Shown here: positions 36,685-53,862 of the stretch, piece by piece
Layout: the number at the start of each line of letters is the position of its first letter
How positions within the stretch are numbered: position 1 is the first letter of the stretch
DNA from: Myxococcota bacterium
GTDB lineage: Bacteria > Myxococcota_A > SURF-8
Length of the DNA: 64,000 nucleotides
Assembly (NCBI GenBank): GCA_963674735.2
Contig: CAXXQS010000001.1
Location: 2,464,001-2,528,000 of the forward strand
Direction of reading: 5' to 3'
Notes under the pieces: model-generated
What the model saw: only the letters and a program-made list of their open reading frames with translations
Told to the model about the DNA's origin: nothing
Databases searched by the model: none
Program-made: the position numbers and the translations under genes

Positions 36685-36998
36685 AATTCGGTTTGGACAC
36701 CCTAACTTGCCGACGAATTAGGTTCCCTCATACGAAGGTACTCAAGCCCTCCGTTCAACCCGGTTTAAAATGAAACCGTTCTCCTTTTCACCGCTTTTTA
36801 ATGGACACGTTCACATTTTTCGGGAATCATGCCACCGCTCGTGGCGTCCTGTCTGCAAGTAAAGCTATACGGCCTTCCGTTTCGCTTTTTGAAAGGGATT
36901 TTTCACTTGCATTTCCGATAAGATGCCCGATAATTGAGGCAATATGTTTGGGGTTTGAGAAGGACGGGCGCCTTCCATACCGGAAAGATGGGTAGGGG

Positions 36999-39116
36999 AT
37001 GAACGAACCATTGAAGGTCGTACTTCTATGGCATATGCATCAGCCGTCGTATGACGACCCGGATACGGGCCATGCGCTGATGCCATGGGTCCGCCTGCAT
37101 GCCATGAAAGACTACTACGACATGGCCAAGGTGATCGAGGATGTCCCCGGTGCGAAAGCGGTGATCAATGTCGTTCCGTCGCTATGGGATCAACTGCTGA
37201 ACCTCTCGGAAGGCTCCTGGCTCGACGAACACGAAATCCTGGCTCGCCGACCCGCCCGAGACCTTTCCGACGACGAGCGCCGCTACCTGGCCAAACAATT
37301 TTTCGCGGCGCACCCGGACAGCATGATCGAACCTTACCCGCGCTATGTCGAGTTGAAAAATCGATATGACGGTCCGCAGGGTGAAAAACGCATTCTAAAA
37401 GCACCGGCACGGGATCTGCGTGACATTCAGGTCTGGTTTCATATCGCCTGGTGCGGACACACACTCAAACATGATCCGCTGGTTGCGGGACTGATCGACA
37501 AAGGACGTCATTTCAAAGAAGACGAAAAGCTGGCCTTGCTCGACCGCATCCGCGCTTTTTTAAATGAAATCCCGACGCTGTACCGTAAGCTCTCCGACAG
37601 CGGGCAGATCGAAGTCAGCACCACGCCCTACTATCATCCGATTTTGCCCTTATTGATCGACCCTGAATCGGCGCTTGTGGCCTGCCCCGGCATGAACCTG
37701 CCACGCGGTCGACGCAGTCTGGCCGCAGACGCCGAGCGCCAGATCGATCTTGCCGTACAACGCCACGAAAAATTGTTCGGGCACCCACCCGCCGGTTTCT
37801 GGCCCTCCGAAGGATCGGTATCGCCCGAAGTCGCCAAATTGATGGCCAGCAAAGGTGTGCGCTGGATCGCCACCGACGAAGAAGTCTTAAAGGCATCGCT
37901 ACGTAAAGACACATTGGAAGCGGCAGATAAATACCGCATCTACGCTTTCGGGGGAACCCACCTGTTTTTCCGCGACCATGGACTGTCGGATGGCATCGGT
38001 TTTGAATACCAGAAACTCGATACGGAAGAAGCAGTAGAGACTTTTATCGGCCACCTACGGACCATCCACCAATCCCTTCCCGACGAACCGGGCTTTGTGG
38101 TGCCGGTTATTCTGGATGGTGAAAACTGTTGGGAATTTTACAGCGAACAAGGACGCCCTTTTCTCAAACAGCTCTATACGGAACTGGTAAAAGATCCGAG
38201 TCTCGAACTCGGCACCTGTTCGGAAGCCCTCGATTTGGACGTACCGATCAGAAAACTCGATTATTTGCACAGCGGCTCCTGGATTTTCGCCAATTTCACG
38301 ACTTGGATAGGCGATCCGGTTAAAAACCGGGCCTGGGAACTCCTGTATCAGGCGCGTCAAATAGCGGAAGAAACACTGGCCGCCGGAAATCTGAACGACG
38401 AAGCCGAAACCGCCCTCTGGGAACATATTCTGGCAGCCGAGGGGAGTGACTGGTTCTGGTGGTTCGGCGAAGGACACACCACGGCCTTCGATCCCATGTT
38501 CGACGCTCTGTTCCGAAAGCGTCTCGCCGCCATTTATCGGAGTTGCAATCAGGAATTACCCGAAGCACTACTGCGTCCGGTGGATCACCGCTGGGCGACC
38601 GAAACGCCGTACATTCTTCCGACCTACAGCCTGCATCCACACATTGATGGACGAATCACCAGTTATTACGAATGGTTATCGGCCGGAGCCTGCTACCCCG
38701 CTGCGGGGGCCATGCAACGCATCGCGACTATGATGACCAAGCTCAGTTTTGGTTTCGACGACCGTCACTTGTATCTGCGCATTGAAGGTCCGGCCATCGA
38801 GCAACTCAAGTCGGGTGAGGCTCGGTTGTCGCTATTCTTCGAAGTTCCGTCAAACAACTCCAAAACGCTGTCGTTATCTCTCCCGCAAGAGGAACAAATT
38901 GAAACCCCGGAAGGTTTTCATTATGCGATGGACCAAGTGATCGAGGCGGCTCTGCCCTTCGCCGCCTTAAGCACGGAATTAAAGCCGGGAGAACCGATCG
39001 AATTTTACGTAGCCTTAGAACGCAATAATCGAGAAGTCGAGCGGTTGCCCGATGGGGCGCCGATCGTCCTGCCTTTTCCGTCCGAAACCTTCGACGACGA
39101 AAATTGGCAGGTCTAA
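36999..39116 (+). CDS. GH57 glycoside hydrolase (amylopullulanase-like)
   Basis: WHMHQP, PYYHPILPL, WPSEG nucleophile, LDGENCWE and AEGSDWFWW. Confidence 0.93.
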   Translation: MNEPLKVVLLWHMHQPSYDDPDTGHALMPWVRLHAMKDYYDMAKVIEDVPGAKAVINVVPSLWDQLLNLSEGSWLDEHEILARRPARDLSDDERRYLAKQFFAAHPDSMIEPYPRYVELKNRYDGPQGEKRILKAPARDLRDIQVWFHIAWCGHTLKHDPLVAGLIDKGRHFKEDEKLALLDRIRAFLNEIPTLYRKLSDSGQIEVSTTPYYHPILPLLIDPESALVACPGMNLPRGRRSLAADAERQIDLAVQRHEKLFGHPPAGFWPSEGSVSPEVAKLMASKGVRWIATDEEVLKASLRKDTLEAADKYRIYAFGGTHLFFRDHGLSDGIGFEYQKLDTEEAVETFIGHLRTIHQSLPDEPGFVVPVILDGENCWEFYSEQGRPFLKQLYTELVKDPSLELGTCSEALDLDVPIRKLDYLHSGSWIFANFTTWIGDPVKNRAWELLYQARQIAEETLAAGNLNDEAETALWEHILAAEGSDWFWWFGEGHTTAFDPMFDALFRKRLAAIYRSCNQELPEALLRPVDHRWATETPYILPTYSLHPHIDGRITSYYEWLSAGACYPAAGAMQRIATMMTKLSFGFDDRHLYLRIEGPAIEQLKSGEARLSLFFEVPSNNSKTLSLSLPQEEQIETPEGFHYAMDQVIEAALPFAALSTELKPGEPIEFYVALERNNREVERLPDGAPIVLPFPSETFDDENWQV

Positions 39117-39172
39117 CCGACATCACCCGAACCCGCCTTATGGCGGCCGGATAAGAGCGGATGGAAACAAAT

Positions 39173-41290
39173 ATGGCAAGAGACAAAATCGCATTCATCC
39201 TGGGTGTACACTGCCACCAGCCAGTCGGCAATTTCGGCTGGGTGATTGAAGAGGCTTTCGAAAAAAGCTATCGACCTTTCATGGAAGCTTTGGTCGATTT
39301 TCCTTCCATCAAAACCGTTGCCCATTTCTCGGGCCCGCTACTGGAGTGGATCGAGATAAACCGCCCTACCTTTTTCGAAACGATACGCATGCTGGTAGAA
39401 CGCCGACAGGTGGAAATCATCGGCGGCGGTTTTTATGAACCCATTTTGATGACGATTCCCGAAGTCGATCGTCTCGAACAAATCGAGATGATGAACGTCT
39501 ATGCCGAAGAACATCTCGGAATGCGCCCGCAAGGTGTGTGGCTGACTGAACGAATCTGGGAACCGGCCTTACCTCGAACACTCAAAGCGGCGGGAGCGGT
39601 CTACAGCCTTACGGACGACAGCCATTTCGTACAGGCGGGTCTCGATCCCGAAAAAGTCAGGGGCTATTACTACACCGAAGATCAAGGCGACCGCACCGCA
39701 ATCTTCCCCATCGATCACCACTTACGCTACGCCGTCCCGTTTAAAGATCCCGAGGCCACCATCGCTTACCTTCGACAACGCTACGATGCGGGCGACCGCA
39801 GTTGCTGCACGTTGGTCGATGACGGCGAGAAATTCGGGATCTGGCCCGGCACCTTCCGCCTGCTGTATGAAGAAAAATGGCTGGAGCGCTTTTTCCAAGC
39901 AATCCAAGACGCTTCCGATTGGCTGGAAATGACCCTGCCAACCGACTACATGGCGGCGTGTCAGCCTGAAGGACTGGCCTACCTGCCCACGGCCAGCTAT
40001 TTCGAAATGGGGCAGTGGACCCTTTCTCCTGCGGGAAACCGGACCCTCGAAGACCTGAAGTACCGCCTTGAAGGCGAATTGGGCGATCGTACCGATGCCT
40101 TCTTGCGCGGGGGATTTTTCCGAAATTTCTTTATGCGCTACCCCGAAACCAACCACATGCACAAACGCATGCAGGAAATCAGCCTGAAAATCCATTTGTC
40201 GGGCTTGGAGGGCCGTCCGCGAGACGAAGCCAAACGGGAATTGTTCATGGCCCAATGTAATTGCGGCTATTGGCACGGTATCTTCGGCGGACTCTACCTG
40301 CCTCACCTGCGTGAAGCCATCTACGAACATCTGATCAAAGCCGAGCGCTTTGTGGAAGACGATCCCCCCAAAGTCGAACTTTACGATCTCGATTTCGACG
40401 GCTGGGAGGAAGCCCATCTTCGTACTACATCCCTGGCTGCCTATCTAGCTCCTCACGATGGTGGAACCGTAATTGAACTCGATCATATCGAATCGGCCAC
40501 CAACGTGGTCAACACCCTGGCCAGACGTCACGAAGTCTATCACGATCCAGCTGAAGACCACGGGAACGACGAAGGTAACAGCATCCACGATCAAGTGAAG
40601 GTTTTATCGGAAGAAAACCGCAAATTATTGGTGTACGATCCGGTGCGCCGTACTTGCTTCCGAGATGTTCTGCTCAATCAGTCGACCCTGCCAACCCCTG
40701 CCGATATACAAGGAAATCTGTTAATAGAAACAGGTGGATTGAGCACGCTGAGTTATGCAAGCGAACCGGAAGAACCCCAAGCAAACGCCGCCGCCTTGCG
40801 CCTGTGGGCCACAACGTCTCTGCCGGATGGACACAAGCTCGAAGTGGTAAAGCACGTGCAGCTTCTCAGCGAAAGCGAAACTTTGCAGACAACCTACACC
40901 TTCGATTTGCGCGAGGGTGGCTCGTTTGAGGGGCTTTTAGGGGTCCAGTTCAACTTGACGGCCCCTTCGGCTCTGGGTATCGAATCACCCTTTTCCATCA
41001 ACGATCAGGTTTTGGCGGGACATGGATTGATCGAGCCGGGCGAAGCGGAATCGGTCGACCGCTTTTCCTTGCGCGATCCGCACCGACAGCTCACCATGAC
41101 GCTTGAAAGCGACCGTAAATTCTCGGCGATCTGGCATCCGGTGCAAACCGTCTCTCAATCGGAATCCGGTTTCGACACCAATTACCAGGCATCCGCCATT
41201 TGGCTGTTCATTCCGCTGGCGCTTTCCAAAGGGACGCAAGAAGCACTGACGATTTCGCTGGGGTTGAAAAACGATCGGGAGACCGAATAG
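39173..41290 (+). CDS. GH57 4-alpha-glucanotransferase / alpha-amylase
   Basis: HCHQPVGN, WLTERIWEP, DDGEKFG, YWHGIFGGLYLPHLR and TVSQSESG. Alternative start at 39161. Confidence 0.93.
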   Translation: MARDKIAFILGVHCHQPVGNFGWVIEEAFEKSYRPFMEALVDFPSIKTVAHFSGPLLEWIEINRPTFFETIRMLVERRQVEIIGGGFYEPILMTIPEVDRLEQIEMMNVYAEEHLGMRPQGVWLTERIWEPALPRTLKAAGAVYSLTDDSHFVQAGLDPEKVRGYYYTEDQGDRTAIFPIDHHLRYAVPFKDPEATIAYLRQRYDAGDRSCCTLVDDGEKFGIWPGTFRLLYEEKWLERFFQAIQDASDWLEMTLPTDYMAACQPEGLAYLPTASYFEMGQWTLSPAGNRTLEDLKYRLEGELGDRTDAFLRGGFFRNFFMRYPETNHMHKRMQEISLKIHLSGLEGRPRDEAKRELFMAQCNCGYWHGIFGGLYLPHLREAIYEHLIKAERFVEDDPPKVELYDLDFDGWEEAHLRTTSLAAYLAPHDGGTVIELDHIESATNVVNTLARRHEVYHDPAEDHGNDEGNSIHDQVKVLSEENRKLLVYDPVRRTCFRDVLLNQSTLPTPADIQGNLLIETGGLSTLSYASEPEEPQANAAALRLWATTSLPDGHKLEVVKHVQLLSESETLQTTYTFDLREGGSFEGLLGVQFNLTAPSALGIESPFSINDQVLAGHGLIEPGEAESVDRFSLRDPHRQLTMTLESDRKFSAIWHPVQTVSQSESGFDTNYQASAIWLFIPLALSKGTQEALTISLGLKNDRETE

Positions 41291-41325
41291 TCCGGTTACC
41301 GGACCACGATTTTAAGGATAGAAAA

Positions 41326-42132
41326 ATGCTGCCTTTTAGTTACAATCACGACCGCTGCCTGATCTACCCGGTAGCCCCTCATCTGTTGTTCGGTTATTGG
41401 GACTTCAGCGAAGAGACCTGGAACCGTATCACGGCAAACGGATCTTCCTTGAAGCTGATCCTGCTGCGTGACGATGGCAATGTTCGCTGGTTCGAAACCG
41501 ACCCGCGCACCCGGGGCTTCTATTTTCGCGGTATCGATGCCAACACCACCTACCACCTGCAATTGGCTCTTTGGGAAGACGGTGCGGATCGGATGCTGAT
41601 GGAAAGTCCGGCAACCACCACACCGGCCGACCGGCCCAGCGAAGACCTGAGTGTCCAGTACGCCCAATTTCGCTTCCTCACCAAACCACCCCGCTACCTG
41701 CCGCCTTCCAGGCTGAAGGAGCTTGGTCTGATCGAGCAGTGGCAGGCACCTGCCGCAGGGGGATTCGGATTCGGTCGCGGTTATGATGCAAGTACAGACA
41801 AGGAAGACGCCGGGAGTTCCTCGGCTGCCGTCAACGCCAACGCCGGGTCGCTCCCCTTATCGCTGCCGCCCGGACGATACCAACGCCATCTGGAGAGCCG
41901 TTGGGTCAGCATGGAACAACGCGGATCGTCCGGCAATTTGAGTTCGTGGTCGGTAAAACGAGACGTGGAAGAATGGGAAGTCCTACCGGAAGCCCCTTCC
42001 TCTCATTTGCAAGCTCAGGCACCGGCCGGCGGGCTCAGTTCGCATGTTTTGAGTTCCGGGACAATCGACGCGGGCGGGGCCGGATCGGACCAACCCGATG
42101 GCGCCAGCAAGAAAGAAGACCATCATGGCTAA
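41326..42132 (+). CDS. DUF4912-domain protein
   Basis: LPFSYN...P..LFGYWDF...S....TP...PS and a Ser-Ser-rich tail; usual position just before a GH57 branching enzyme. Confidence 0.8.
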   Translation: MLPFSYNHDRCLIYPVAPHLLFGYWDFSEETWNRITANGSSLKLILLRDDGNVRWFETDPRTRGFYFRGIDANTTYHLQLALWEDGADRMLMESPATTTPADRPSEDLSVQYAQFRFLTKPPRYLPPSRLKELGLIEQWQAPAAGGFGFGRGYDASTDKEDAGSSSAAVNANAGSLPLSLPPGRYQRHLESRWVSMEQRGSSGNLSSWSVKRDVEEWEVLPEAPSSHLQAQAPAGGLSSHVLSSGTIDAGGAGSDQPDGASKKEDHHG

Positions 42133-43720
42133 AGGCTATTTATCGCTCGTTTTACACGCTCACTTGCCTTTCGTACGGCACCCCGAACACCAGGATCACC
42201 TGGAAGAGCGCTGGCTGTTTGAAGCCATCACCGAAACATACATGCCGCTGCTGCACGTTTATCTCGGGCTTCTGCACGACCAGGTGCCTTTCAAGATCAC
42301 TATGTCGATCTCGCCCCCTTTGGCCAACATGCTGGCCGATGATTTACTCAAGGAGCGCTATCTGCGCCACCTCGACAACTTGATCGATCTGGCGAAAAAA
42401 GAAATTGCCCGGACGAAAAAAGAAGCCTCCGAATTCAGCGATCTGGCCGAAATGTACCTCCATATTTTCTCCGATACGCGAAAAACCTTCGTCGATCGTT
42501 TGGATATGGATATTCTTGGCGGGTTCAAGCAGGTGCTCGATAGCGGCAATCTCGAAATCATCACCTGTGGTGCCACCCATGGTTTTCTTCCGCTCATGCA
42601 ACATCACCCCGAGGCCATCCGCGGGCAGATCCTGACCGCCGCCGACGATTACGAACGGCATTTCGGCCAGGCCCCCAAAGGTATCTGGCTGCCGGAATGC
42701 GGCTACTTCCCGGGCCTGGATTACTATCTGGCCGAGGCGGGAATCAGTTACTTTTTGACCGACAGCCACGGCATCGACTACGCCCAACCGCGCCCCCTTC
42801 ACTCGGTGTACGCTCCCTTACAATGTCCGTCGGGTGTGGCGGCCTTCGGGCGAGATCTGGAATCGTCCAAGCAGGTGTGGAGTTCCGAGGAGGGCTACCC
42901 CGGCGATTTCGAATACCGCGAGTTCTACCGCGACGTCGGATTCGATTTGCCTTACGATTACATCAAGGACCACATCCACCCCGATGGGATCCGTCTCAAC
43001 ACCGGCGTCAAATACTTCCGCATCACCGGCAACGGCGAACTGGGTGCACGGGCCGTCTACAACCGACCCGCCGCCCTGGAGAAAGCCGCCTCTCATGCCA
43101 GCAACTTCATGTTCAATCGCGAACGCCAGATTGAGTGGCTGGCCGGTCAGATCGACAAACCTCCAATCATCGTCGCGCCTTACGACGCCGAGCTATTCGG
43201 CCACTGGTGGTTCGAGGGACCCGAATTCATCAACTATTTGATGCGAAAAGTCGGTTTCGACCAGAACGTCTTCGAGTTGACGACTCCCCGACATTATCTG
43301 GAAAACGAACCTATTCTTCAAGTCGCAACACCGGCGGGTTCGAGTTGGGGCGACAAAGGCTATTACGAAGTTTGGCTCAACGGTTCCAACGACTGGATTT
43401 ATCTGCATCTGCATGAGGCCGCCGAACGCATGAGTGAACTGGTCCGCCATCCGCGCCGTGGCGAGGAACAGATAGAGCGCGCGGTCAAACAGGCATTGCG
43501 GGAACTGCTTCTCGCACAAAGTAGCGATTGGGCGTTTATCATGACCACCGCCACATCGGTTGGCTATGCCAACCAACGCACCGACATGCACATGGAACGA
43601 TTTAACGAGTTGTATTCGCAAGTAATACAAGGTACCATCAACGAAGAATTCCTGGCCGACATCGAAGCGAAAGACAACATCTTCCCCACGATCGATCCGG
43701 ACGTGTACCGTCCGCGCTAG
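42125..43720 (+). CDS. GH57 1,4-alpha-glucan branching enzyme
   Basis: HAHLPFVRH, WLFEAITETY, WLPEC, YDAELFGHWWFEG and LLAQSSDW. Confidence 0.95.
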   Translation: MAKGYLSLVLHAHLPFVRHPEHQDHLEERWLFEAITETYMPLLHVYLGLLHDQVPFKITMSISPPLANMLADDLLKERYLRHLDNLIDLAKKEIARTKKEASEFSDLAEMYLHIFSDTRKTFVDRLDMDILGGFKQVLDSGNLEIITCGATHGFLPLMQHHPEAIRGQILTAADDYERHFGQAPKGIWLPECGYFPGLDYYLAEAGISYFLTDSHGIDYAQPRPLHSVYAPLQCPSGVAAFGRDLESSKQVWSSEEGYPGDFEYREFYRDVGFDLPYDYIKDHIHPDGIRLNTGVKYFRITGNGELGARAVYNRPAALEKAASHASNFMFNRERQIEWLAGQIDKPPIIVAPYDAELFGHWWFEGPEFINYLMRKVGFDQNVFELTTPRHYLENEPILQVATPAGSSWGDKGYYEVWLNGSNDWIYLHLHEAAERMSELVRHPRRGEEQIERAVKQALRELLLAQSSDWAFIMTTATSVGYANQRTDMHMERFNELYSQVIQGTINEEFLADIEAKDNIFPTIDPDVYRPR

Positions 43721-43733
43721 AGAGGAAGTCAGT

Positions 43734-45227
43734 ATGGCCGAACGGAAACTCAGAGTGTTATATGCAGCCGCCGAGGTCGCCCCCTTTTCCAAGGTGGGCG
43801 GTTTAGCCGACGTGGCCGGAGCGCTTCCACGCGCCTTGATCGCTGAAAAAGTCGATATCCGGTTGATCACGCCCCTTTATGGAATGATCGACCGTTCCGC
43901 CTGGCGTATACGCCGAGTGGCCGGATTGGGCGATCTTCATATTCCCATCGGTGAGCACGATTATGCGATCCGCTTCTTTCGCGGAAACCTACCGGACTCG
44001 AAAGTGCAAGTCTTTTTCATGGAATGCGATGACCTCTTCGCCGGAGAAGGTGTTTACGCCGATCCCGCCAGTGGACATGATTACCCCGATAACCCGGCAC
44101 GTTTCATCCTGTTCTCGAAGGCCATTCTCTCATTTCTCCAGACAGGTGTATTCGACGCAGACATCTTGCATCTAAACGATAACCAGACCGCTTTGGCGGC
44201 AGCGATGATGAAAACATCCGAGGCCTATGCCGACGCACGCAAGCTACCGACTTTACTAACGATTCATAACATCCAGTATCAGGGAAACTATAGTCTGCAC
44301 CATCTGTACGACGCGGGGCTGAGTCCTTATCTGGCGGCTCCCGGCGGACCTTTCGAGTTTTACGGCGGCTTCAATTTCCTGAAAGCCGGAATCGAATACG
44401 CCGATAAAATCAATACCGTATCGGACACCTATGCCCGCGAAACGCTCCAATTTGATGAAATCAGTTTCGGTTTACAGGGTGTGCTGAATAATCGAAAAAA
44501 CGATTACTTCGGCATCCTAAACGGCGCAGATTACAACGACTGGAATCCGGCTAAAGACAAGCATCTGGTCAAAACATACAGCTCCCGCAATCTGAGCGGC
44601 AAAACGGTCAACAAGCAAGATCTGATCGAACTCTGCGATTTTAACGATCCAGCCGCCGCACGTCCCTTGGCTGGAATCATTACACGCCTGGTCCAACAAA
44701 AAGGGCTGGACTTGCTCCTTGAAGCGCTACCCAGGCTCATGGAACAAACGGACATCAACTTGGTTATACTTGGGTCGGGCGCCCCTCATTACGCTGAGGC
44801 ACTGCGTGCGGCGGAGGCATACTTCCCAGGACGCTTGAAAGTATTTCTGAAATTCGACAACACTTTGGCGCACCGCATTGAGGCGGGGAGCGACCTCTAC
44901 CTCATGCCATCCGTTTTCGAACCCTGCGGACTTAACCAATTATACTCGCTAAAATACGGAGCGCTGCCGGTCGTGCACTATACGGGCGGATTGGCGGACA
45001 CGGTCCAGGAAGTGGACCCAGCCACCGGCAAAGGCTGGGGCTTCACGTTTACCGAGTATTCCGTCAACGGTTTTATGGACGCAATATTACGCGCCGTTGA
45101 GGCTTACGGCGATCGAGACACTTGGGCGAAACTGGTTAAACGCGCCATGCTGCTTGATTTCTCATGGGCTGCCAGTGCCAAACGGTATAAGGAGGTCTAC
45201 AAAAGTCTGGTCGATGGACAATCTTGA
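43734..45227 (+). CDS. glgA: Glycogen synthase
   Basis: KVGGLADV, TIHN, GILNG and FEPCGLNQ. Confidence 0.96.
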   Translation: MAERKLRVLYAAAEVAPFSKVGGLADVAGALPRALIAEKVDIRLITPLYGMIDRSAWRIRRVAGLGDLHIPIGEHDYAIRFFRGNLPDSKVQVFFMECDDLFAGEGVYADPASGHDYPDNPARFILFSKAILSFLQTGVFDADILHLNDNQTALAAAMMKTSEAYADARKLPTLLTIHNIQYQGNYSLHHLYDAGLSPYLAAPGGPFEFYGGFNFLKAGIEYADKINTVSDTYARETLQFDEISFGLQGVLNNRKNDYFGILNGADYNDWNPAKDKHLVKTYSSRNLSGKTVNKQDLIELCDFNDPAAARPLAGIITRLVQQKGLDLLLEALPRLMEQTDINLVILGSGAPHYAEALRAAEAYFPGRLKVFLKFDNTLAHRIEAGSDLYLMPSVFEPCGLNQLYSLKYGALPVVHYTGGLADTVQEVDPATGKGWGFTFTEYSVNGFMDAILRAVEAYGDRDTWAKLVKRAMLLDFSWAASAKRYKEVYKSLVDGQS

Positions 45228-47436
45228 ACCTATCCAACACCCGTTGAAACAGTGGGTTATCGGCATCTTGGACTTTCTGGGGCCCCTGTTTCACAAATCG
45301 GAAATGGGCGTTATGCTCATCGACCGCAATGCGTATGTCCATTGGTCCGACCAAGGTCTGTCGGAGTTGGGAATATGCCATCATATAGAGGAAGATCCCA
45401 AAGCAAAACCGTTCTATGCCTTCGACCATGATGACTGCATAACCTGCCCACTAGCCGAGGCTTGCCGGAATCCGATTGAAAGCCATGCCTTTTCTGCACT
45501 GGCCTCCACCGAGAACACCAAGGAAAAACGTAGTTTTTCCATGTACAGCCATCCGGTAGTCGACGAAAATAACGAAGCGTTGTATTACATTCTCTTTGTA
45601 AACGAAGTCACCGACCGCGAGCAGGCATTCCGAGAGAAACAGCAGCTTCACCTCATGCTTTCCAACGTGTTGGACAACACCGCCGATGCCGTTATCACCC
45701 TCGACATGAAGCAAGCCATTCATTCCTGGAACAATGGAGCCTGGACGGCATTTGGATATACACGTGAGGAAGTGCGCGGCGAACACATCGGTTTACTCAT
45801 TCCGGACAATCCCGAATCCCAGCAGGCCTTCGTCGAAATTCAGCAACTCCTCGAAGACCAAGGCTTTGTTCGTAACTCGCGCACACGCATGCGCACCAAA
45901 GAAGGCCGTACAATCGATGTCGCCGTCACGCAGACCGTCATGCACGATCTGGGTGACGAACCGTTCGGTTATTCGTTAATCATTCGCGATATCTCAACGG
46001 TCGTTGAGCTGGAAACCAATTTGCAGGCCAAAGTCGACCATCTTCAAAAACAGTTACAGCTCGACAATATCATTCGCAGCGCGCACACCCTCGACGAAGT
46101 CAGCACGACGATTCTCGTTGCCGTTACGGCCGGAGAAGGCCTGCGGTTCAATCGGGCGTTTTTATTGATCGTGGATCAGGATCACCAACGTTTGATCGGA
46201 ATGCAAGCCGTAGGACCATCCAGCCCGGAGGAAGCCCACGAAATCTATCAACAGCATTATTTAGAGCACCCGACGCTGGCCGAAATCCTGCAGGACCGTC
46301 TCAAGTATCAAAATAAGTCCGACCAACTCGTCAATGAACAAGTGCGCAAAGTGGACATCCCGCTTTCCGACACCGAACATCCATTCGTAAGATGCTTGCT
46401 CGAAAACCAGCCCTATTTGTTTATGAGCGGAAACCCCGATGAAGCGCGCCTGCACGAACTTTTGGAAATCATTCCGTCCGTTCAATTCGTCTGTGCCCCC
46501 ATGATCTGGCAGGACCGCCCTATCGGAATCATCATGGCGGATAATCCGGTTACGCGCCAAGACATCAACATGAACGAGATCGAGTTTTTAAGCAGCTTTG
46601 CCAATCGCGCCGCATCCGCCATTTCAAACATCCAGTTACAGGAAAACCTCCAGGCCAAGTTGGAGGAACTAAGAAACGCTTACCAGCAACTCTCGGACAT
46701 GCAAAAAATGACCTTGCATCAGGAAAAGCTGGCGGCGTTGGGCGAAATGGCATCGACCGTTGCCCATGAAATCCGAAACCCGCTGGTATCGATTGGCGGG
46801 TTTGCACGGTTGATCGCCAAAGGAAAGTTATCCAAGGAGAACAAACGTTATCTGGATATCGTCACGGCGGAAACCAGCCGCATGGAGCGCATTCTTGAGG
46901 AAGTACTCGGCTACGTTCGCAGACCCGATCACGAAACCCAACTCCACGATGTCAATGGACTGTTGTCGGAATACCTCACGTTGGTCCGGCGGCAGGTGGC
47001 GAACAGCGATCTCGTCGTGACTTTCGACGCCGATCCGGCATGTCCCATGATCGAATGCAACGATTACCAACTCAAGCAAGCCTTTATCAATATCATCCAA
47101 AATGGGCTCGATGCACTCGGTCGCCGAGGACAACTCGGTATTACCACCCACTACAACCAACACATAGACGAAGTGGTGATACGTATCTCCGATACGGGTA
47201 TCGGCATCAGTGAAGAAACAAAAGCCAATCTATTCAAGCCGTTCTTTACGACCAAATCACGCGGGACCGGTCTCGGCCTCAGCGTGACAAAGCAAATTAT
47301 CACGAATCACAACGGTTCGATCAATGTTCACAGCATCGAGGGAGAAGGGTCAACATTCGAAATCCGTCTCCCCACCAGCCGGAAAAAGGAGGCATCCCAT
47401 GACGGCAACAACGAAGAAGAAGCTGCTCATCGTTGA
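45214..47436 (+). CDS. Cytoplasmic PAS-PAS-GAF histidine kinase
   Basis: No TM segments; PAS (WNNGA..FGY..EEV.G); GAF (NRAFL...PIGIIMADN); AHEIRNPL, FFTTK and GTGLGL. ATG 45214 overlaps glgA. Confidence 0.92.
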   Translation: MDNLEPIQHPLKQWVIGILDFLGPLFHKSEMGVMLIDRNAYVHWSDQGLSELGICHHIEEDPKAKPFYAFDHDDCITCPLAEACRNPIESHAFSALASTENTKEKRSFSMYSHPVVDENNEALYYILFVNEVTDREQAFREKQQLHLMLSNVLDNTADAVITLDMKQAIHSWNNGAWTAFGYTREEVRGEHIGLLIPDNPESQQAFVEIQQLLEDQGFVRNSRTRMRTKEGRTIDVAVTQTVMHDLGDEPFGYSLIIRDISTVVELETNLQAKVDHLQKQLQLDNIIRSAHTLDEVSTTILVAVTAGEGLRFNRAFLLIVDQDHQRLIGMQAVGPSSPEEAHEIYQQHYLEHPTLAEILQDRLKYQNKSDQLVNEQVRKVDIPLSDTEHPFVRCLLENQPYLFMSGNPDEARLHELLEIIPSVQFVCAPMIWQDRPIGIIMADNPVTRQDINMNEIEFLSSFANRAASAISNIQLQENLQAKLEELRNAYQQLSDMQKMTLHQEKLAALGEMASTVAHEIRNPLVSIGGFARLIAKGKLSKENKRYLDIVTAETSRMERILEEVLGYVRRPDHETQLHDVNGLLSEYLTLVRRQVANSDLVVTFDADPACPMIECNDYQLKQAFINIIQNGLDALGRRGQLGITTHYNQHIDEVVIRISDTGIGISEETKANLFKPFFTTKSRGTGLGLSVTKQIITNHNGSINVHSIEGEGSTFEIRLPTSRKKEASHDGNNEEEAAHR

Positions 47437-47776
47437 CGATGAGTCCCATATTCGTGAACTCTACAAAGCCGAATTCGACATGGAAGGATACGAGGTCGTT
47501 CTGGCCTCCAGCGGTCCGGAAGCACTCTCCATGATTGAAAATTCCAAACCCGATCTGGTGGTGTTGGATATTCGTATGCCCGGCATGGACGGAATCGAAG
47601 CCATGGGTGAAATACTGGGTCGCGACAACGAACTGCCGGTTATTATCAACAGCGCCTATAGCCACTACAAAGAGAACTTTATGAGTTGGTCGGCCGACGC
47701 CTATATCGTAAAATCGGCTGATTTGACCGAACTGAAGGCAAAGGTGGCTGAACTGCTGAATCGCGGGATCGAATAA
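47399..47776 (+). CDS. Single-domain response regulator (receiver only)
   Basis: IVDDE, LDIRMP and VKS; 125 aa with no output domain; AGGAGG RBS inside the kinase 3' end. Confidence 0.92.
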   Translation: MTATTKKKLLIVDDESHIRELYKAEFDMEGYEVVLASSGPEALSMIENSKPDLVVLDIRMPGMDGIEAMGEILGRDNELPVIINSAYSHYKENFMSWSADAYIVKSADLTELKAKVAELLNRGIE

Positions 47777-47816
47777 ACCAGACCATTCGGCACATCAGGA
47801 CGTAAGGAAATTTCAC

Positions 47817-49049
47817 ATGCAAGGTTATTGGTCCGGCATTTATCGAAATACACTGACAATGATTTTAGCGGGTGGCCGAGGTGAACGCCTTTACCCACTG
47901 ACCCAACCGCGTTCAAAGCCTTCAGTCCCTTTTGGCGGCATGTATCGTATCATCGACTTCACGCTCAGCAATGCCATCAATTCGGGCTTCCGACGTATTT
48001 ATCTGCTTACTCAGTATAAGAGCCAATCACTGGATGAACACGTACGTAAAGGCTGGAATATCCTTGCACCGGAACTGGGCGAGTTCATCTATGCCGTCCC
48101 CCCCCAACAACGCTATCGCGATCGCTGGTACTCGGGTACGGCCGACGCAATCTTTCAGAACCTCAACTTGCTCGACAAGCACAAACCCAATAACGTTCTG
48201 ATCCTCTCGGGTGACCACATTTACCGGATGGATTACTCCAAGCTGGTCGCGTTTCATCTCGAAAAAGATGCAGACGTAACGGTTTCCACCATCCCGGTTG
48301 CGATCGCCGATGCCGGTCGTTTCGGTGTCTGTCAGACAAACAAAGACGACCGAATCCAATCTTTTCAGGAAAAGGTGGCCGATCCCGCCCAGATCCCGGA
48401 CCGTCCCGGTTATTGCCTGGGAAGCATGGGCGTCTACATTTTCAAAACGGAGCCGCTCGCCCGTATGGTTGCGCAGGATGCCAAGCGTAACACCTCACAC
48501 GACTTCGGAAAAAACATCATCCCCGATATGATCGATCGCTATAAGGTCTATGCTTATACGTTCAAAGATGAGTTTAAAGACGGACCGGATGCCTACTGGC
48601 GCGACATCGGAACGCTCGACAGCTATTTCGAAGCGTCGCTGAATTTGGTTTCCGTCGATCCCGAATTCAATCTATACGAAAATGCCTGGCCCGTCCGCAC
48701 CTACTTCGATCTGCACCCACCCGCCAAAACCGTCTGGCGCGGCGAAGCCCGACGCGGTCAGATTATCGAGTCGATGGTTTGCAATGGAACCATTGTTTCG
48801 GGTGGCACCGTGGTCCGCTCGATCCTCAGCCCTGGCGTACGCATCAACAGCTTCTCCCACACTGACGAATGCATCCTGTTCAACAACGTCGACGTCGGCC
48901 GCTATTGCCGTCTAAGACGCGTCATTGTGGATAAAGATGTGAAAATTCCAGAGGGTACGGTCATTGGCTATGATTCGGTAAGTGACCGTAAACGCTTTGT
49001 CACAACACCAAACGGTGTCAGCGTCATCCCCAAAGGTTACGTTTTCTAA
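47817..49049 (+). CDS. glgC: Glucose-1-phosphate adenylyltransferase
   Basis: LAGGRGERL.PLT..RSKPSVPFGG, GTADA, SGDHIYRMDY, DFGK and YWRDIGT. Confidence 0.97.
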   Translation: MQGYWSGIYRNTLTMILAGGRGERLYPLTQPRSKPSVPFGGMYRIIDFTLSNAINSGFRRIYLLTQYKSQSLDEHVRKGWNILAPELGEFIYAVPPQQRYRDRWYSGTADAIFQNLNLLDKHKPNNVLILSGDHIYRMDYSKLVAFHLEKDADVTVSTIPVAIADAGRFGVCQTNKDDRIQSFQEKVADPAQIPDRPGYCLGSMGVYIFKTEPLARMVAQDAKRNTSHDFGKNIIPDMIDRYKVYAYTFKDEFKDGPDAYWRDIGTLDSYFEASLNLVSVDPEFNLYENAWPVRTYFDLHPPAKTVWRGEARRGQIIESMVCNGTIVSGGTVVRSILSPGVRINSFSHTDECILFNNVDVGRYCRLRRVIVDKDVKIPEGTVIGYDSVSDRKRFVTTPNGVSVIPKGYVF

Positions 49050-49070: not shown

Positions 49071-49092
49071 AGGGGCTTCGGCCCCTTGTTTT
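49071..49092 (+). terminator. Intrinsic terminator of the glycogen cluster
   Basis: aggggc-ttcg-gcccct-tgtttt. Confidence 0.8.
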
Positions 49093-49122
49093 AGTTCCAC
49101 CATCCGCTTAACCGGCTTTTCT

Positions 49123-49151
49123 TTGACTTCGTTGGGCGTTTTTGCTAGAAT
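49123..49151 (+). promoter_or_regulatory. Sigma70-type promoter TTGACT-N17-TAGAAT
   Basis: Near-consensus boxes with 17-bp spacer. Confidence 0.6.
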
Positions 49152-49184: not shown

Positions 49185-50117
49185 ATGCCCGGTATCGGTG
49201 TCATCAACAACCCCCGTTCCAAGCAGAATCGCAAACACCCGGAACGAATCAGCAAAATCGGTTATATGCTGGGGTATGAGGGAAAATCCGAATCCACTTG
49301 GACTTTTGAAGCCCTCGACGATGTGCTGATGGAGTTCAAGCGTGAGGATATCGACATTCTCGCAATCAATGGCGGAGATGGATCGAACCATGTGACACTC
49401 ACGCATATGTTGCAGATCTGGGGCGACCACCCATTACCGAAAATCTCCCTTTTGCGGGGGGGCACGCTTAATACAATTTCCGAGGCATGCAAAATCAAGG
49501 GAAGCACCACTTGGCTGCTGTATAACCTGGCCGAAAAATACGGAGCGGGCGAGCCCTTCGAGACCATTCACCGCGACTTGCTACGGATCAACGACCACTA
49601 CGGCTTTCTGTTCGGAAACGGCATCATTGCCAACTTTATGGATACTTATTACGAATCCGGCACACCAAGCCCCAGCCATGGAGCGGCTGTGCTGCTTCGT
49701 GGAGTCGGCTCCGCTATCACAGGTGGTGCCCTGGCGAAAAAATGGACCCGCAAAATCAATGCGCGGGTGGTCATTGACGGCGAAGAAATCTCGGAAACGA
49801 GCTTCACCGCAATCATGGCCGCTACTATCCACGAAATCGGGATCGGTTTCACTCCATGGTATCGCTGCGAAGATGAGCCGGGAACCTTCCATGTTCTCTT
49901 ACTAACCGGAAGCGCCATGGACGTCGCGACCCAAGTCCCCTACATTTACTTCGGCCGAGCCCTTCATCCTAAACTGGGCTGGGATATTGTAGCCAAAGAC
50001 GTCCTTATCGAATCGGAAGAACCTTTTGGTTTTACCATCGATGGCGATATGCATTGGTCTGAAGATGGCCGAATTCACCTGGGAGTCGGTCCTCGCGTGG
50101 AGATCATTCGCAAGTGA
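49185..50117 (+). CDS. Diacylglycerol/sphingosine kinase-family protein
   Basis: NNPRS, GGDGS, GGTLN and IDGD. Confidence 0.88.
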   Translation: MPGIGVINNPRSKQNRKHPERISKIGYMLGYEGKSESTWTFEALDDVLMEFKREDIDILAINGGDGSNHVTLTHMLQIWGDHPLPKISLLRGGTLNTISEACKIKGSTTWLLYNLAEKYGAGEPFETIHRDLLRINDHYGFLFGNGIIANFMDTYYESGTPSPSHGAAVLLRGVGSAITGGALAKKWTRKINARVVIDGEEISETSFTAIMAATIHEIGIGFTPWYRCEDEPGTFHVLLLTGSAMDVATQVPYIYFGRALHPKLGWDIVAKDVLIESEEPFGFTIDGDMHWSEDGRIHLGVGPRVEIIRK

Positions 50118-50902
50118 CAATGCCTAAATCCCACAATCATTCCTACCCATTTGTCACCGGCGGATTCACTCACGTCGGTATGCGACGCGACCACAACGAG
50201 GATGCCTTCTCGATCAATCCCGACCGACGGCTGTTCATCGTCGCCGATGGCATGGGCGGGCACAATTCGGGCGAAATCGCCAGCAAAATGACGATCGAAA
50301 CCATCGACAATTTCTTCAAAGCCCACGAACAGGACGAAGAAATCACCTGGCCCTATAAATATGATCGCCGCCTCAACTTCGCCCAGAACATGTTGAAAGT
50401 GGGCACGATGCTGGCAAATGACCGGGTCTGGGAAACTTCCCAGCGTAACGACCTGTACCATGGAATGGGCACGACCGTCGTCGCCGTCCACCTGGAAAAC
50501 CGGACTGCCCATATCGCCAATGTCGGCGACTCGCGCTGCTACTTGTGCCGCGAAGGAGAAATCAGACAACTGAGCGAGGATCATAGCTTACTCAACGATA
50601 CGCTCAAACGTCAAAAGCTGACCCCTGAAGAGATCAAGAATTTCCCACATAAGAACGTCATCATGCGGGCTTTGGGCATCAAAGATCAGGTCGAAGTAGA
50701 CCTTTTCCAGCATGAAATGCGGAAAGGCGACACCTTGCTGCTGTGTACGGATGGCCTCACCGACATGATCAGCGACCAGCAGATTCTGGATGTGATGTTC
50801 ACCACTCCCGATATCAAGCTGGCGGCCAAGCTTTTAGTACGCGAGGCAAACCATGCCGGCGGTAACGACAATATCACCACGGTCCTGATACAATTACCCT
50901 AA
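50114..50902 (+). CDS. PP2C-family Ser/Thr phosphatase (Stp1-like)
   Basis: RDHNED, VADGMGG, GMGTT, VGDSR, CTDGL and GGNDNIT. Confidence 0.95.
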   Translation: MTMPKSHNHSYPFVTGGFTHVGMRRDHNEDAFSINPDRRLFIVADGMGGHNSGEIASKMTIETIDNFFKAHEQDEEITWPYKYDRRLNFAQNMLKVGTMLANDRVWETSQRNDLYHGMGTTVVAVHLENRTAHIANVGDSRCYLCREGEIRQLSEDHSLLNDTLKRQKLTPEEIKNFPHKNVIMRALGIKDQVEVDLFQHEMRKGDTLLLCTDGLTDMISDQQILDVMFTTPDIKLAAKLLVREANHAGGNDNITTVLIQLP

Positions 50903-50952: not shown

Positions 50953-52032
50953 TCATTCCCCGTTGGCATTCTCGATGATTTGCGTATTGCTTGCGGTGGT
51001 GGGTACACGCAACTTGTGTTTGCGGTTCATCACCATTCCGATCACCTTCTGGCGATTCCCCACCTTGGTTCCGGCGAACACGATCGAGTCACTGACTTGC
51101 GCATTTTTTCCGATTTGGCTGTTATCGCCAATGACGGCATACGGTCCGACCTTGGCATTGTCCCCGATGCGCACGTTGTGCCCGACGATGAACGGCGGAA
51201 TAAACTCGATCGCCGACCCCAATTCCACATTTTCACCTAAACAGGCCAACTCGGCTTTGTCTTTTTCAGGTTTCAAAATGAAATGGGCCAGCGGATCGTA
51301 ATGACGAAAATTGATTCGCCTTTCCAAAAACGCCATGTTCGCCGTATAGTATGTTTCCGGTCGTCCCAGATCGCTCCAAAAGCCGTTCGTGATATAGCCC
51401 ATCACCCGCTCACCATTATCCACCATCTTGGGATAGGCATAGGCGTTGATACAGGTGGTGATATTCGGGGGGACATACTCGAACACACGCGGCGACAAAA
51501 TATGTATACCGGTAAAAACAGTCGGGGTGCGTTCACTTTCACGAACATCATTGATGCGTCCGGCGATATTGCGGATGGCGCATGATTCATCGACTTCCAC
51601 GGCTCCGTAAGTTTGAATGGAAGCATCCCGTGTCAGTACCATGGTTGCCACCGCATCGTGCCGACGATGGAAGTGAATGGCTTCTTCCAAATCGCAATCC
51701 ACCAGGATATCGGCGTTCATCACCACAAAACAGTCTTCACCATCGAAGAAACGTTCCACGTTTTTCAGGCCACCACCGGTTCCCCAGAGTTCGTCTTCAT
51801 GGCTGTAGGTGATGCGGACACCCATGACGGATCCATCACCGAGTTCCTGTTCGATCATCTTGGGCAGATGATAGAGATTGATTACGATATCTTTGCAGCC
51901 ATAGTGTTTGAGAAACTCGATGTTGTAACGGATAACCGGCAAATTCGCGACGGGAAAGAGCGGTTTGGGCAGGCTTTCGGTCAGCGGTAACAACCGTTCG
52001 CCTTTTCCAGCGGCCAGAATCATGGCTTTCAT
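50953..52032 (-). CDS. NDP-sugar pyrophosphorylase with C-terminal left-handed beta-helix (MurU/MPG-like)
   Basis: MKAMILAAGKGERLLPLT..PKPL, GTGGG and hexapeptide repeats. Confidence 0.9.
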   Translation of the reverse strand: MKAMILAAGKGERLLPLTESLPKPLFPVANLPVIRYNIEFLKHYGCKDIVINLYHLPKMIEQELGDGSVMGVRITYSHEDELWGTGGGLKNVERFFDGEDCFVVMNADILVDCDLEEAIHFHRRHDAVATMVLTRDASIQTYGAVEVDESCAIRNIAGRINDVRESERTPTVFTGIHILSPRVFEYVPPNITTCINAYAYPKMVDNGERVMGYITNGFWSDLGRPETYYTANMAFLERRINFRHYDPLAHFILKPEKDKAELACLGENVELGSAIEFIPPFIVGHNVRIGDNAKVGPYAVIGDNSQIGKNAQVSDSIVFAGTKVGNRQKVIGMVMNRKHKLRVPTTASNTQIIENANGE

Positions 52033-53084
52033 AATGACAACCTCGCTTCGTAGCGGCTAAGAAGTTCCGCCAGGTCGTGAAACTCGGGAAGACCTTTCAA
52101 TGCCCAACGGACGTAACTCAAACTATCCGGAATATAACCGAGAAACGACGGATTGTGCTTCACGCGGTCAATGAAAACAAAGCGACCCGCGTCCTTCAGC
52201 TTGCGCTGAACCGTCTGCATTCGAAAACCCATTTTAAAGGCGTCACGGTCGACCGTAATCCCCTTGGCTATTTCCCAGCGGTCGAGGTAGGCATCCACGA
52301 GTTCGTCGACCAGATCCCCTTCAAGAGCGATATACGAGTCACGCAGGAGCGCCACCAAATCATAGGGCCATGGCCCTATCAGCGCATCCTGAAAATCGAT
52401 CAGAGATAAATCGCCCTTGTGAACCATAATGTTCCGACTTTGAAAATCCCGATGCACCAACCCGGTGGGCAACTCCACCAGGAGACGGCAGATACGATCG
52501 AAGTGGACCGTCATCAGTCGGCGATCATCATCCGGAACCGTGATATCATACAAGGCTTCGATACCATATTCAACGTAATGATCGAATTCCCACATCAGCA
52601 AGTCGTAATCGAAACGGCGTGAGAAAGCCAAGCAGTCGGCTTGAACCGATTCACCATGAGTTTGAAACTGCACCAATAAATCCAATGCACGCCGATACCA
52701 GTCCAGCCGGATATCACGACCGGCATCGTGTACCTTCGAAAACAGCTGCACGTCCCCCAAATCTTCGAGAAAAATCAACCCTCGCGATACCGAAGCATGA
52801 AAGATTTTAGGGACGGGGAGCCCTCCTCGATCGAGGAAACGCTGAACGTTGGTGAAGGGAAAATCGGCGGAATCATCACCATTTCCCGCCTCATCGGAAC
52901 GAAAAGCATCGCCGGGGTTGAATCGCATCAAGACCAGGGAGCGCAATTGCGGGTGATTCAGAATATGCAAACGGAAATATTCACGGCTGGACGCATCTCC
53001 GGCCATCTTCTCGATGGAGAAGTGAACACTCTGCTGTCGGGTGATCCGCTGCAGATAAGGTGTCACAGCCCTGCGCAACCGCAT
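52029..53084 (-). CDS. Aminoglycoside-phosphotransferase-fold sugar kinase (AmgK-like)
   Basis: GDASSREYFR, LEDLGD, HRDFQSRN, IDFQDA, YDLVALLRD and QRKLK. Start uncertain. Confidence 0.88.
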   Translation of the reverse strand: MRLRRAVTPYLQRITRQQSVHFSIEKMAGDASSREYFRLHILNHPQLRSLVLMRFNPGDAFRSDEAGNGDDSADFPFTNVQRFLDRGGLPVPKIFHASVSRGLIFLEDLGDVQLFSKVHDAGRDIRLDWYRRALDLLVQFQTHGESVQADCLAFSRRFDYDLLMWEFDHYVEYGIEALYDITVPDDDRRLMTVHFDRICRLLVELPTGLVHRDFQSRNIMVHKGDLSLIDFQDALIGPWPYDLVALLRDSYIALEGDLVDELVDAYLDRWEIAKGITVDRDAFKMGFRMQTVQRKLKDAGRFVFIDRVKHNPSFLGYIPDSLSYVRWALKGLPEFHDLAELLSRYEARLSL

Positions 53085-53232
53085 ATACGCATACCCACTC
53101 GAAATAAGCACGCAAACACGGGAAGCCGGCCTGCGACGCGGCCACGAACCCCGTCGCAGAACCCGGCTACCTATGTTCGTAAAAAAGTGATTTCCGTCGT
53201 CAACCGTTTTCGATAAACGGACCGACAACCAA

Positions 53233-53862
53233 TCAGAACGAAGGAGCATCCAAGCCGGTGGCATCCGCCGTGGCTTCCCAATCGTTGCAATCGATATCGC
53301 TGACGGTTTCGATGCCTTCCGTGTTCTCTTTGGCAATATCCTCGAAGCTCTGCACGTAATCCTCGAAGCCTTGTTCACATGCGGTCACGCAAGGGATTCC
53401 GCCTTCTTTGGCGCACCATTCGGCTGCGGAGGCCTGCCCGGCAACCTGGACGCACTCTACGCATTTGGCACAGAAGCGCAGACAAACGCTGTCTTCCGTC
53501 TGGCCGGTCGCCACCGTAAGACCGAATTCCTCACAGGTATAAGCTTCATCCGTAATCTGCATCTCGGCTGCTTCCTCGGCCGCAACGACATTCTCTTCGA
53601 TATTGACGCCCGGAATCAAACCCGAGCCCTGTTCGCATAATTCCTGGCAGGCACGCCCGGCCTCATCGATAATACAGGTGTAGTCCAGAAGATCCTGAAT
53701 GTAACCTTCACCCGTACCCTGGCAGGTTTCGCACTTGATGCAATAACGGCCACAAGGTGCGCCTTCATCGGCATCGATCAGATCCTCGACGCTGTCACAA
53801 GCCAGAACCATCGCCATCATCGCCACTAAAACCACCACCACAGTCCACATTTTCTTCGTCAT
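53233..53862 (-). CDS. Acidic Cys-rich lipoprotein with two CxxxCxxCxxC modules
   Basis: AAGGAGG RBS, lipobox VLAC, CGRYCIKCETC and CLRFCAKCVEC. Confidence 0.8.
   Translation of the reverse strand: MTKKMWTVVVVLVAMMAMVLACDSVEDLIDADEGAPCGRYCIKCETCQGTGEGYIQDLLDYTCIIDEAGRACQELCEQGSGLIPGVNIEENVVAAEEAAEMQITDEAYTCEEFGLTVATGQTEDSVCLRFCAKCVECVQVAGQASAAEWCAKEGGIPCVTACEQGFEDYVQSFEDIAKENTEGIETVSDIDCNDWEATADATGLDAPSF

Follow-up and report, generated by a model that had tools for sequence, protein, structure and literature searches.

A TrrA-like receiver encoded between a soluble histidine kinase and GlgC: a candidate protein-level switch of bacterial glycogen synthesis

Introduction

What is the function of a two-component system which is encoded in the midst of a glycogen operon and whose response regulator has no output domain? 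The question is raised by a stretch of 64,000 nucleotides (nt) from a Myxococcota bacterium (GTDB lineage Bacteria; Myxococcota_A; SURF-8; GenBank assembly GCA_963674735.2, contig CAXXQS010000001.1, positions 2,464,001 to 2,528,000), in the following termed the window. Eight genes are arranged head to tail on its plus strand (36999-49049), a cluster of glycoside hydrolase family 57 (GH57) and glycogen genes which includes a kinase and a receiver. The 3' end of this operon has the order glgA (glycogen synthase, 43734..45227), a soluble PAS-GAF histidine kinase (45214..47436), a receiver of 125 amino acids (aa; 47399..47776) and glgC (glucose-1-phosphate adenylyltransferase, 47817..49049). Textbooks place the control of bacterial glycogen synthesis at GlgC, an enzyme which is regarded as being regulated by metabolites.

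A first-pass annotation of this DNA had proposed that the kinase signals through the receiver to GlgC, GlgA or a GH57 enzyme. We have followed up this proposal computationally. The arrangement of kinase, receiver and GlgC, as read from sequence and as it recurs in several distant phyla, suggests that sugar storage is switched at the protein level in a manner not described so far. A functional coupling of the receiver to glucan metabolism we consider very probable. The more specific proposition is that the pair represents a two-component system of the ThkA/TrrA type which is dedicated to the metabolism of glycogen (alpha-glucan), shares a transcript with the glg/GH57 genes and acts on GlgC; in our judgment it stands at an even chance.

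The kinase and its gene junctions

The four genes are tightly packed. The kinase ATG at 45214 is located 14 nt before the end of glgA (stop codon at 45225-45227) and is preceded by AAGGAGG at 45190-45196; in the orthologues of the same order the open reading frames (ORFs) start at the aligned position. The receiver ATG at 47399 overlaps the kinase gene by 38 nt and has AAAGGAGG 6 nt upstream, a strong Shine-Dalgarno sequence. The glgC ATG at 47817 follows 40 nt past the receiver stop at 47776. The overlaps reported in the first-pass annotation, kinase with glgA (45214-45227) and receiver with kinase (47399-47436), and the 40-nt gap ahead of glgC were all confirmed on the ORFs.

The identities of the two enzymes are clear. 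GlgA (497 aa) matches Pfam PF08323 (Glyco_transf_5) with 220.9 bits and NCBIfam TIGR02095 with 489 bits (cut-off 328). GlgC (410 aa), single-copy in its genome by profile match, passes the catalytic models NF001947 (551 bits, cut-off 470) and TIGR02091 (462.6 bits, cut-off 424.9).

The kinase (740 aa) consists of an N-terminal domain, a PAS domain (about residues 187-300), a GAF domain (about 330-510), HisKA (53.1 bits) and HATPase_c (87.9 bits), with His518 in the H-box AHEIRNPL. A membrane helix was not predicted, and no 19-residue hydropathy window exceeds 1.29. Together with the Pfam domains this bears out the earlier description of a soluble PAS/GAF kinase. The N-terminal domain (approximately residues 1-145; 45214-45650) carries Cys55 and a CxxC pair, Cys75/Cys78, which are kept in 8/8 order-level orthologues and may form a metal- or redox-sensing site. 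The kinases of Planctomycetota are devoid of this Cys-containing domain. The overlap of the kinase and receiver genes and their conserved order speak for a putative cognate pair, in which phosphotransfer would proceed from the kinase to the receiver.

The receiver and its signature

The receiver matches PF00072 with 92.7 bits (cut-off 30.2), the sole Pfam family in its 125 aa. The first-pass annotation had described a receiver lacking a DNA-binding domain and carrying a distinctive segment. Both features were borne out; the segment, residues 87-106, reads YSHYKENFMSWSADAYIVKS. The acidic pair (D13, D14), the phospho-acceptor Asp (D57), the Ser/Thr position (S85), the aromatic switch (Y102) and the Lys (K105) are all present. 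Because of this set, the roles of which we assume by homology with CheY, the protein looks phosphorylatable.

Homologues are 116-134 aa long. In the protein database the family proved to be unusually well conserved: the best 120 hits are 61-79% identical, and among the sources named are Myxococcales, Planctomycetota, Gemmatimonadota and Candidatus Glassbacteria. Across phyla identity amounts to 50-79%, with D14, D57, F94, W97, A99, Y102, K105, E111 and L112 invariant in 42 sequences. The alignment yields a family signature at residues 80-113, LPVIINSAYxxYKDNFMSWxADAYVxKSSDLTELK. An AlphaFold2 model has the (beta-alpha)5 fold with a predicted local distance difference test score (pLDDT) of 86.6. 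The invariant residues map to helix 88-96, strand 101-104 and helix 110-121, a region which we take to be the usual output face of CheY-type receivers.

A comparison of the family profile with the PDB identified the closest relative of known structure: the 116-aa chain of 3A0R, 3A10 and 3A0U at E 2.3e-40, followed by the next hit at 5.4e-28. These entries are ThkA (TM1359)/TrrA (TM1360) of Thermotoga maritima (dataset list of PMC4034769). The TrrA match extends through the C-terminal signature, ...AYSHYRSD.SSWAADEYVVKS..FDELK. By these matches the window receiver is assigned to a TrrA-like family.

Apart from this family, the order contains paralogous receivers with a related C-terminal motif, which are order-specific and 43-49% identical (L021 on G001:C62, L022 in G008, L023 in G003). 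They are degenerate in the acid pocket or in the loop which follows the acceptor Asp (e.g., DG for DD; LPDNDG), and glucan genes are not found nearby; they may be pseudo-receivers. A search for longer receiver proteins gave 17 hits, among which P0126 (382 aa) was the one join of a class-1 receiver with a GlgC N-terminus. It was rejected: its last ~100 residues are out of frame, and it is probably an indel artefact of assembly or gene call at the overlapping stop/start. Long open frames around some receiver matches were likewise rejected as fusions; they result from alternative reading frames without stops, which in high-GC DNA extend across the kinase gene.

Linkage within the order and phylum of the window

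The genome of the window contains 108 receiver matches in 5.26 Mb; because of this abundance a receiver beside any one operon is unsurprising by itself. What counts is whether the neighborhood is conserved. An orthologue of the receiver, 67-79% identical, exists in 6/40 relatives, all of them in the order of the window and spread across three families. The order glgA-kinase-receiver-glgC is kept in four of them (G001, G003, G004 and G008). In the other two, G006 and G009, glgA-kinase-receiver is kept. A wider sample of the phylum has the family in 7/251 genomes, again all in this order. GlgC is present in 26/41 relatives, including every receiver-bearing genome (7/7). Two members of the window's own family, G002 and G005 (86% and 79% complete), showed neither receiver nor GlgC.

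Linkage across phyla

Among species genomes a scan delivered 80 receiver loci. The search pattern was partly generic; hence ten of these loci (L024-L033) represent the family and the other 70 served as control receivers. The family loci carry record labels of Spirochaetes, Planctomycetota including Candidatus Brocadia pituitae, Deltaproteobacteria/Thermodesulfobacteriota, Aminicenantes and metagenome-assembled genomes (MAGs) labeled 'Eubacteriales'. GlgC, GlgA, GH57 or GalT-like genes flank 8/10 of them, and a ninth, L027, ends within a GlgC start. Around the 70 control receivers of the same scan no glucan gene was found (0/70).

A second scan, by the C-terminal motif, collected 80 family loci from metagenomes, which were not de-replicated and contain some near-copies. 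Directly downstream, 48 of these loci have GlgC, 12 a GalT-like gene and 11 another gene, while 9 are uninformative. The kinase is located immediately upstream in 43 of 73 informative loci. At least one glucan gene is present in 62/80; the remainder are mostly short contigs.

Individual phyla vary in how widely the family is spread. In the phylum of Candidatus Brocadia pituitae (G041) it occurs in 25/151 genomes, with GlgC next in 18/25. In that of the Aminicenantes-labeled MAG (G043) the figure is 9/151, with a glucan gene within 1.5 kb in 8/9. In that of the Thermodesulfobacteriota-labeled MAG (G045) no fewer than 109/151 genomes possess the family; GlgC is next in 24 of the 30 best loci, and 28 genomes have the two adjacent by coordinates. 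Receiver-GlgC pairs also exist with no kinase nearby, in loci of the G045 phylum and in approximately 20 metagenome loci. The receiver gene runs into the GlgC start in 37/90 pairs, mostly by 4 nt, and 27 more have a gap of 0-30 nt (median 7.5 nt; start codons were assigned heuristically).

The first-pass annotation had named as support a consistent association of glg/GH57 genes with receivers that carry the F.SW.ADAY..KS motif. Across phyla this association is strong, and GlgC is by far the commonest immediate neighbor. The outcome which would have spoken against the proposal, homologous receivers unlinked to glycogen genes, was not obtained: 8/10 family loci are linked versus 0/70 controls.

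Four kinase-less receiver-GlgC loci (L106, L120, L133, L149) share an upstream gene of 210-250 aa with a partial CdhD-like match and an aminotransferase on the opposite strand.

A possible common history of receiver and GlgC

A tree of GlgC with 59 rows contains a branch with an SH-like approximate likelihood ratio (SH-aLRT) of 97; on one side of it are the 42 receiver-linked GlgCs together with the G006/G009 enzymes, on the other 15 GlgCs from the phylum of the window which have no linked receiver. The window GlgC clusters with receiver-linked GlgCs of other phyla, away from the unlinked enzymes of its own phylum. This grouping fits a joint transfer of the module. The tree, a quick search under LG+G4, is suggestive and not conclusive because the contrast group was drawn from one phylum, that of the window.

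Two receiver classes

The lower-scoring family hits display a variant motif, ...YKQDFxxWASDAYVVKS, which defines a second class. Class 1, to which the window receiver belongs, comprises 121 loci: GlgC is next in 82, elsewhere in the cluster in 9, and 10 have other glucan genes only. Class 2 comprises 31 loci, with GlgC next in 3 and other glucan genes only in 19. The classes were set by motif cross-tabulation, and the regular expressions miss variants, such that 35 family-like rows stand in the 'neither' category. All control receivers in the cross-tabulation (26/26) carry neither motif. A receiver tree (213 rows, 117 columns) for defining clades was dropped because its resolution was too poor.

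Several class-2 loci stem from genomes of the G045 phylum in which no GlgC match was obtained. The GalT-like gene which accompanies class 2 encodes a protein of the HIT family. It recurs in the loci L279-L298, at L028:5652-6677 and in the genome of the window at C2:2102997-2104796, where it is found with a second GlgA on a contig other than that of the operon. The best PDB match of the protein is 1Z84 (E 8.1e-78 vs. 2.8e-24 for classical GalT), which we take to be the ADP-glucose phosphorylase of Arabidopsis. As an alternative enzyme, the GalT-like protein may catalyze the formation or breakdown of ADP-glucose. By these assignments both receiver classes adjoin an enzyme which makes or breaks ADP-glucose.

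A proposed mechanism

Because the receiver has no output domain, it must act by protein contact or in a phosphorelay. We propose the following sequence of events. The cytoplasmic kinase would sense an intracellular cue via its Cys-containing N-terminal, PAS and GAF domains and autophosphorylate at His518; the phosphoryl group would be passed on to Asp57 of the receiver, which would work through protein contact. The likeliest target would be the enzyme encoded directly behind it, GlgC (ADP-glucose pyrophosphorylase). Contact would be made through the nearly invariant alpha4-beta5-alpha5 face, i.e., Tyr87, Tyr90, Phe94, Trp97, Tyr102, Lys105, Ser106 and Glu111-Leu112-Lys113, and would set the supply of ADP-glucose, hence glycogen synthesis, at the protein level.

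As a generalization, receivers of the TrrA type might be dedicated phospho-switch subunits of the enzymes which make or break ADP-glucose, with GlgC as the target of class 1 and the enzyme similar to ADP-glucose phosphorylase as that of class 2. Docking of the phosphorylated receiver would then start or stop glycogen synthesis within seconds and with no involvement of transcription. This wider proposal is speculative, and we would sooner bet against it than for it.

Is GlgC the target?

The complex of GlgC and receiver was predicted from own matched alignments of 42 loci. The score was 0.50, in the band of weak support, while the best of three controls scored 0.00. In the three runs at least 86% of the contacts agree, and the partners have a pLDDT of at least 85. 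The mark for this score is reached by 116/157 solved complexes and by 2/215 mismatched pairs. Scores of 0.60 or less comprise only 18/157 solved complexes plus both passing mismatches; because the alignments were our own, these benchmark counts apply only roughly here. Given the strong prior from the gene neighborhood, the score is taken as a modest plus for a contact with GlgC. That GlgC itself is the contacted target is a tentative assignment, with the balance tipping slightly toward doubt. Of the earlier proposal that the receiver acts on GlgC, GlgA or a GH57 enzyme, the association with glg genes stands, and the weak complex score of 0.50 leans toward GlgC; the direct action we still infer.

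Several observations weigh against GlgC as the target. The complex score is itself weak, and the prediction returned no interface for GlgC and receiver. The GlgC columns which separate linked from unlinked enzymes are only E23, L128, L130, S131, Y140 and I264, with no obvious surface patch. In G006 and G009 the GlgC gene is on another contig, and at the Candidatus Brocadia pituitae locus there is no GlgC within 10 kb of the receiver. Neither GlgC nor a GalT-like gene is downstream in 11/71 informative metagenome loci. Glucan genes are entirely absent from four loci (L173, L178, L182, L183). In the G045 phylum, 24 genomes with a family match gave no GlgC match at E <= 1e-60. Conversely, GlgC occurs in genomes which have no receiver, in 17/151 of that phylum and in 19/41 relatives of the window. 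Further, the locus counts overstate independence because the loci are related to one another.

The four loci devoid of glucan genes constitute an exception lineage. Their class-1-like receiver, with a WGAEAY variant of the motif, follows a short TyrRS-like gene and is surrounded by cupin-HTH (helix-turn-helix), rubrerythrin and RtcB genes.

The alternative which survives best retains control by protein contact and moves the target. This could be GlgA, the GalT-like or a GH57 enzyme, or else an assembly of several enzymes on the glycogen granule, and GlgC would be adjacent simply as a member of the pathway. Class 2 supports this alternative, since these receivers are positioned behind GalT-like(-GlgA)-kinase in 17/20 loci (hand-picked among lower-scoring hits not adjacent to GlgC); 9 of these 17 loci also have GlgA, and most have the kinase. 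The affinity of the GalT-like protein to 1Z84 favors it as well, as does L030, where the receiver is located between a GalT-like and a UDPGP-family gene. GlgA-kinase-receiver with no adjacent GlgC is found in G006, G009, the Candidatus Brocadia pituitae locus, L146 and L162. Yet such a target does not easily account for class 1, where GlgC is next in 82/121 loci and elsewhere in the cluster in 9 more, nor for the receiver-GlgC pairs which persist alone, often overlapping. We consider it an unlikely explanation, albeit one with slightly more than a one-in-five standing.

No more probable is that the receiver serves a branched phosphorelay as phosphate sink, shuttle or connector, with the output elsewhere (e.g., glg transcription via an unlinked DNA-binding regulator) or limited to feedback on its own kinase. 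Single-domain receivers such as Spo0F and the CheY-type sinks are established to work in this manner, in the PDB comparison Spo0F ranks directly behind TrrA and a single de novo design, and the 108 receiver matches of the genome offer many possible partners. However, no histidine phosphotransfer (Hpt) protein or DNA-binding regulator recurs in the annotated loci, receiver-GlgC pairs are kept with no adjacent kinase, and the alpha4-beta5-alpha5 face, needless for a mere sink, is the most conserved part of the protein; we judge this role unlikely, at a level of one in five. Finally, although the genome is rich in two-component genes, a chance placement of the pair, unrelated to glycogen, is rejected as of negligible probability, as it is contradicted by the linkage of the family to glg genes, which is conserved across several phyla with varying gene order, versus 0/70 other-receiver loci.

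Relation to known systems

Known partners of the single-domain receivers CheY, Spo0F, DivK and CpdR are a flagellar switch protein, a phosphotransferase, kinases and a protease. The window receiver shares with these regulators the receiver fold, the intact Asp pocket and the lack of an output domain, and Spo0F and CheY are among its PDB matches. It differs in its surroundings: no che, flagellar, spo or cell-cycle genes are found among the annotated neighbors in the window and the related loci, which speaks against membership in the CheY group. A biosynthetic enzyme as the partner of a single-domain receiver would be a new kind of output.

The nearest system is ThkA/TrrA, in which, as here, a PAS-linked cytoplasmic kinase is paired with a regulator which consists of a receiver only. 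Among PDB entries 3A0R_A matches the window kinase best (E 2.1e-40), equal within error to ZraS (8.2e-40). There are also differences. In a kinase of the ThkA type the PAS domain is directly linked to the dimerization/histidine phosphotransfer and catalytic domains (DHp-CA), whereas the window kinase has a GAF domain between PAS and HisKA. Further, the TrrA motif is nearer to class 2 than to class 1 of the window. A passage of PMC5633905 treats the ThkA/TrrA complex as a structural model. In open-access full text we found structural work only and no physiological role for the pair.

GlgC is known to be controlled by allosteric metabolites, and control by a partner protein has precedents as well. 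GlgD is a non-catalytic GlgC-partner subunit of Firmicutes. The window enzyme is distinct from it: it passes the catalytic GlgC models, and the GlgD model gives 153.5 bits, below the cut-off of 236.6. CipG is named as a GlgC-binding protein of cyanobacteria in PMC13506006. Both GlgD and CipG act at the same ADP-glucose-forming control point, yet neither is a two-component phospho-switch. Transcriptional control of glycogen is represented by the cyanobacterial systems Hik8/Rre37 and SasA/RpaA. Those regulators bind DNA and are encoded outside a glg operon, in contrast to the window receiver, which lacks a DNA-binding domain.

We found no description of a receiver-GlgC link in open-access full text (including PMC2996986), in agreement with the first-pass annotation, which knew of none. 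If correct, the proposal would describe the first two-component system whose output directly controls a central biosynthetic enzyme, and would extend the two-component repertoire to a metabolic enzyme as output. The phospho-switch would be common, considering its occurrence in 109/151 sampled genomes of one phylum and 25/151 of another. It would add a signal-dependent, protein-level layer to GlgC in extensive groups of environmental bacteria, among them sulfate and metal reducers, anammox and other planctomycetes and Aminicenantes, and would assign a physiological role to the structural model pair ThkA/TrrA.

Other features of the operon and its surroundings

Upstream of the first GH57 gene a promoter-like site is located at 36802..36830 (+; 9/12 matches in a consensus scan), a possible operon start. 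It is a candidate only, because promoter- and terminator-like sites are in overall counts not commoner in this region than in shuffles. Four genes precede glgA, all on the plus strand. The first encodes a GH57 family glycoside hydrolase of 705 aa (36999..39116; PF03065, 190.8 bits), syntenic in G001, G003, G004 and G008. The second encodes a GH57 protein of the alpha-amylase/4-alpha-glucanotransferase type of 709 aa (39161..41290; PF03065, PF09094, PF09095), also syntenic in relatives. The third is a DUF4912 protein (41200..42132; PF16258, 37.5 bits), in which the match begins at residue 48; its real start is probably downstream of 41290. A DUF4912 protein is present in a second glycogen cluster, in Planctomycetota (L026:11682-12455), between glgC and a GH57 branching enzyme, and may be an uncharacterized component of such clusters. 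The fourth is a GH57 branching enzyme of 540 aa (42098..43720; PF03065 and PF09210 BE_C), 70-71% identical in relatives.

The operon probably ends with glgC. A terminator-like hairpin, AGGGGC-TTCG-GCCCCT, followed by a T-run (49071..49096, +), starts 22 nt after the glgC stop and is the top-listed of the terminator-like sites of the region; a promoter-like site with 10/12 consensus matches follows at 49123-49151. The latter is positioned ahead of two genes on the plus strand (49185-50902) which encode a protein with a DAGK catalytic domain (310 aa) and a Stp1-type PP2C Ser/Thr phosphatase (262 aa; NF033484, 262.9 bits). This pair adjoins glgC also in G003, on the same strand, and in G008, where it is inverted. 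Next to it, on the minus strand (50953-53378), the genes for a hexapeptide-repeat NTP-transferase (359 aa) and an APH-family kinase (449 aa) are neighbors, a couple which presumably resembles the AmgK/MurU-type sugar-recycling pair.

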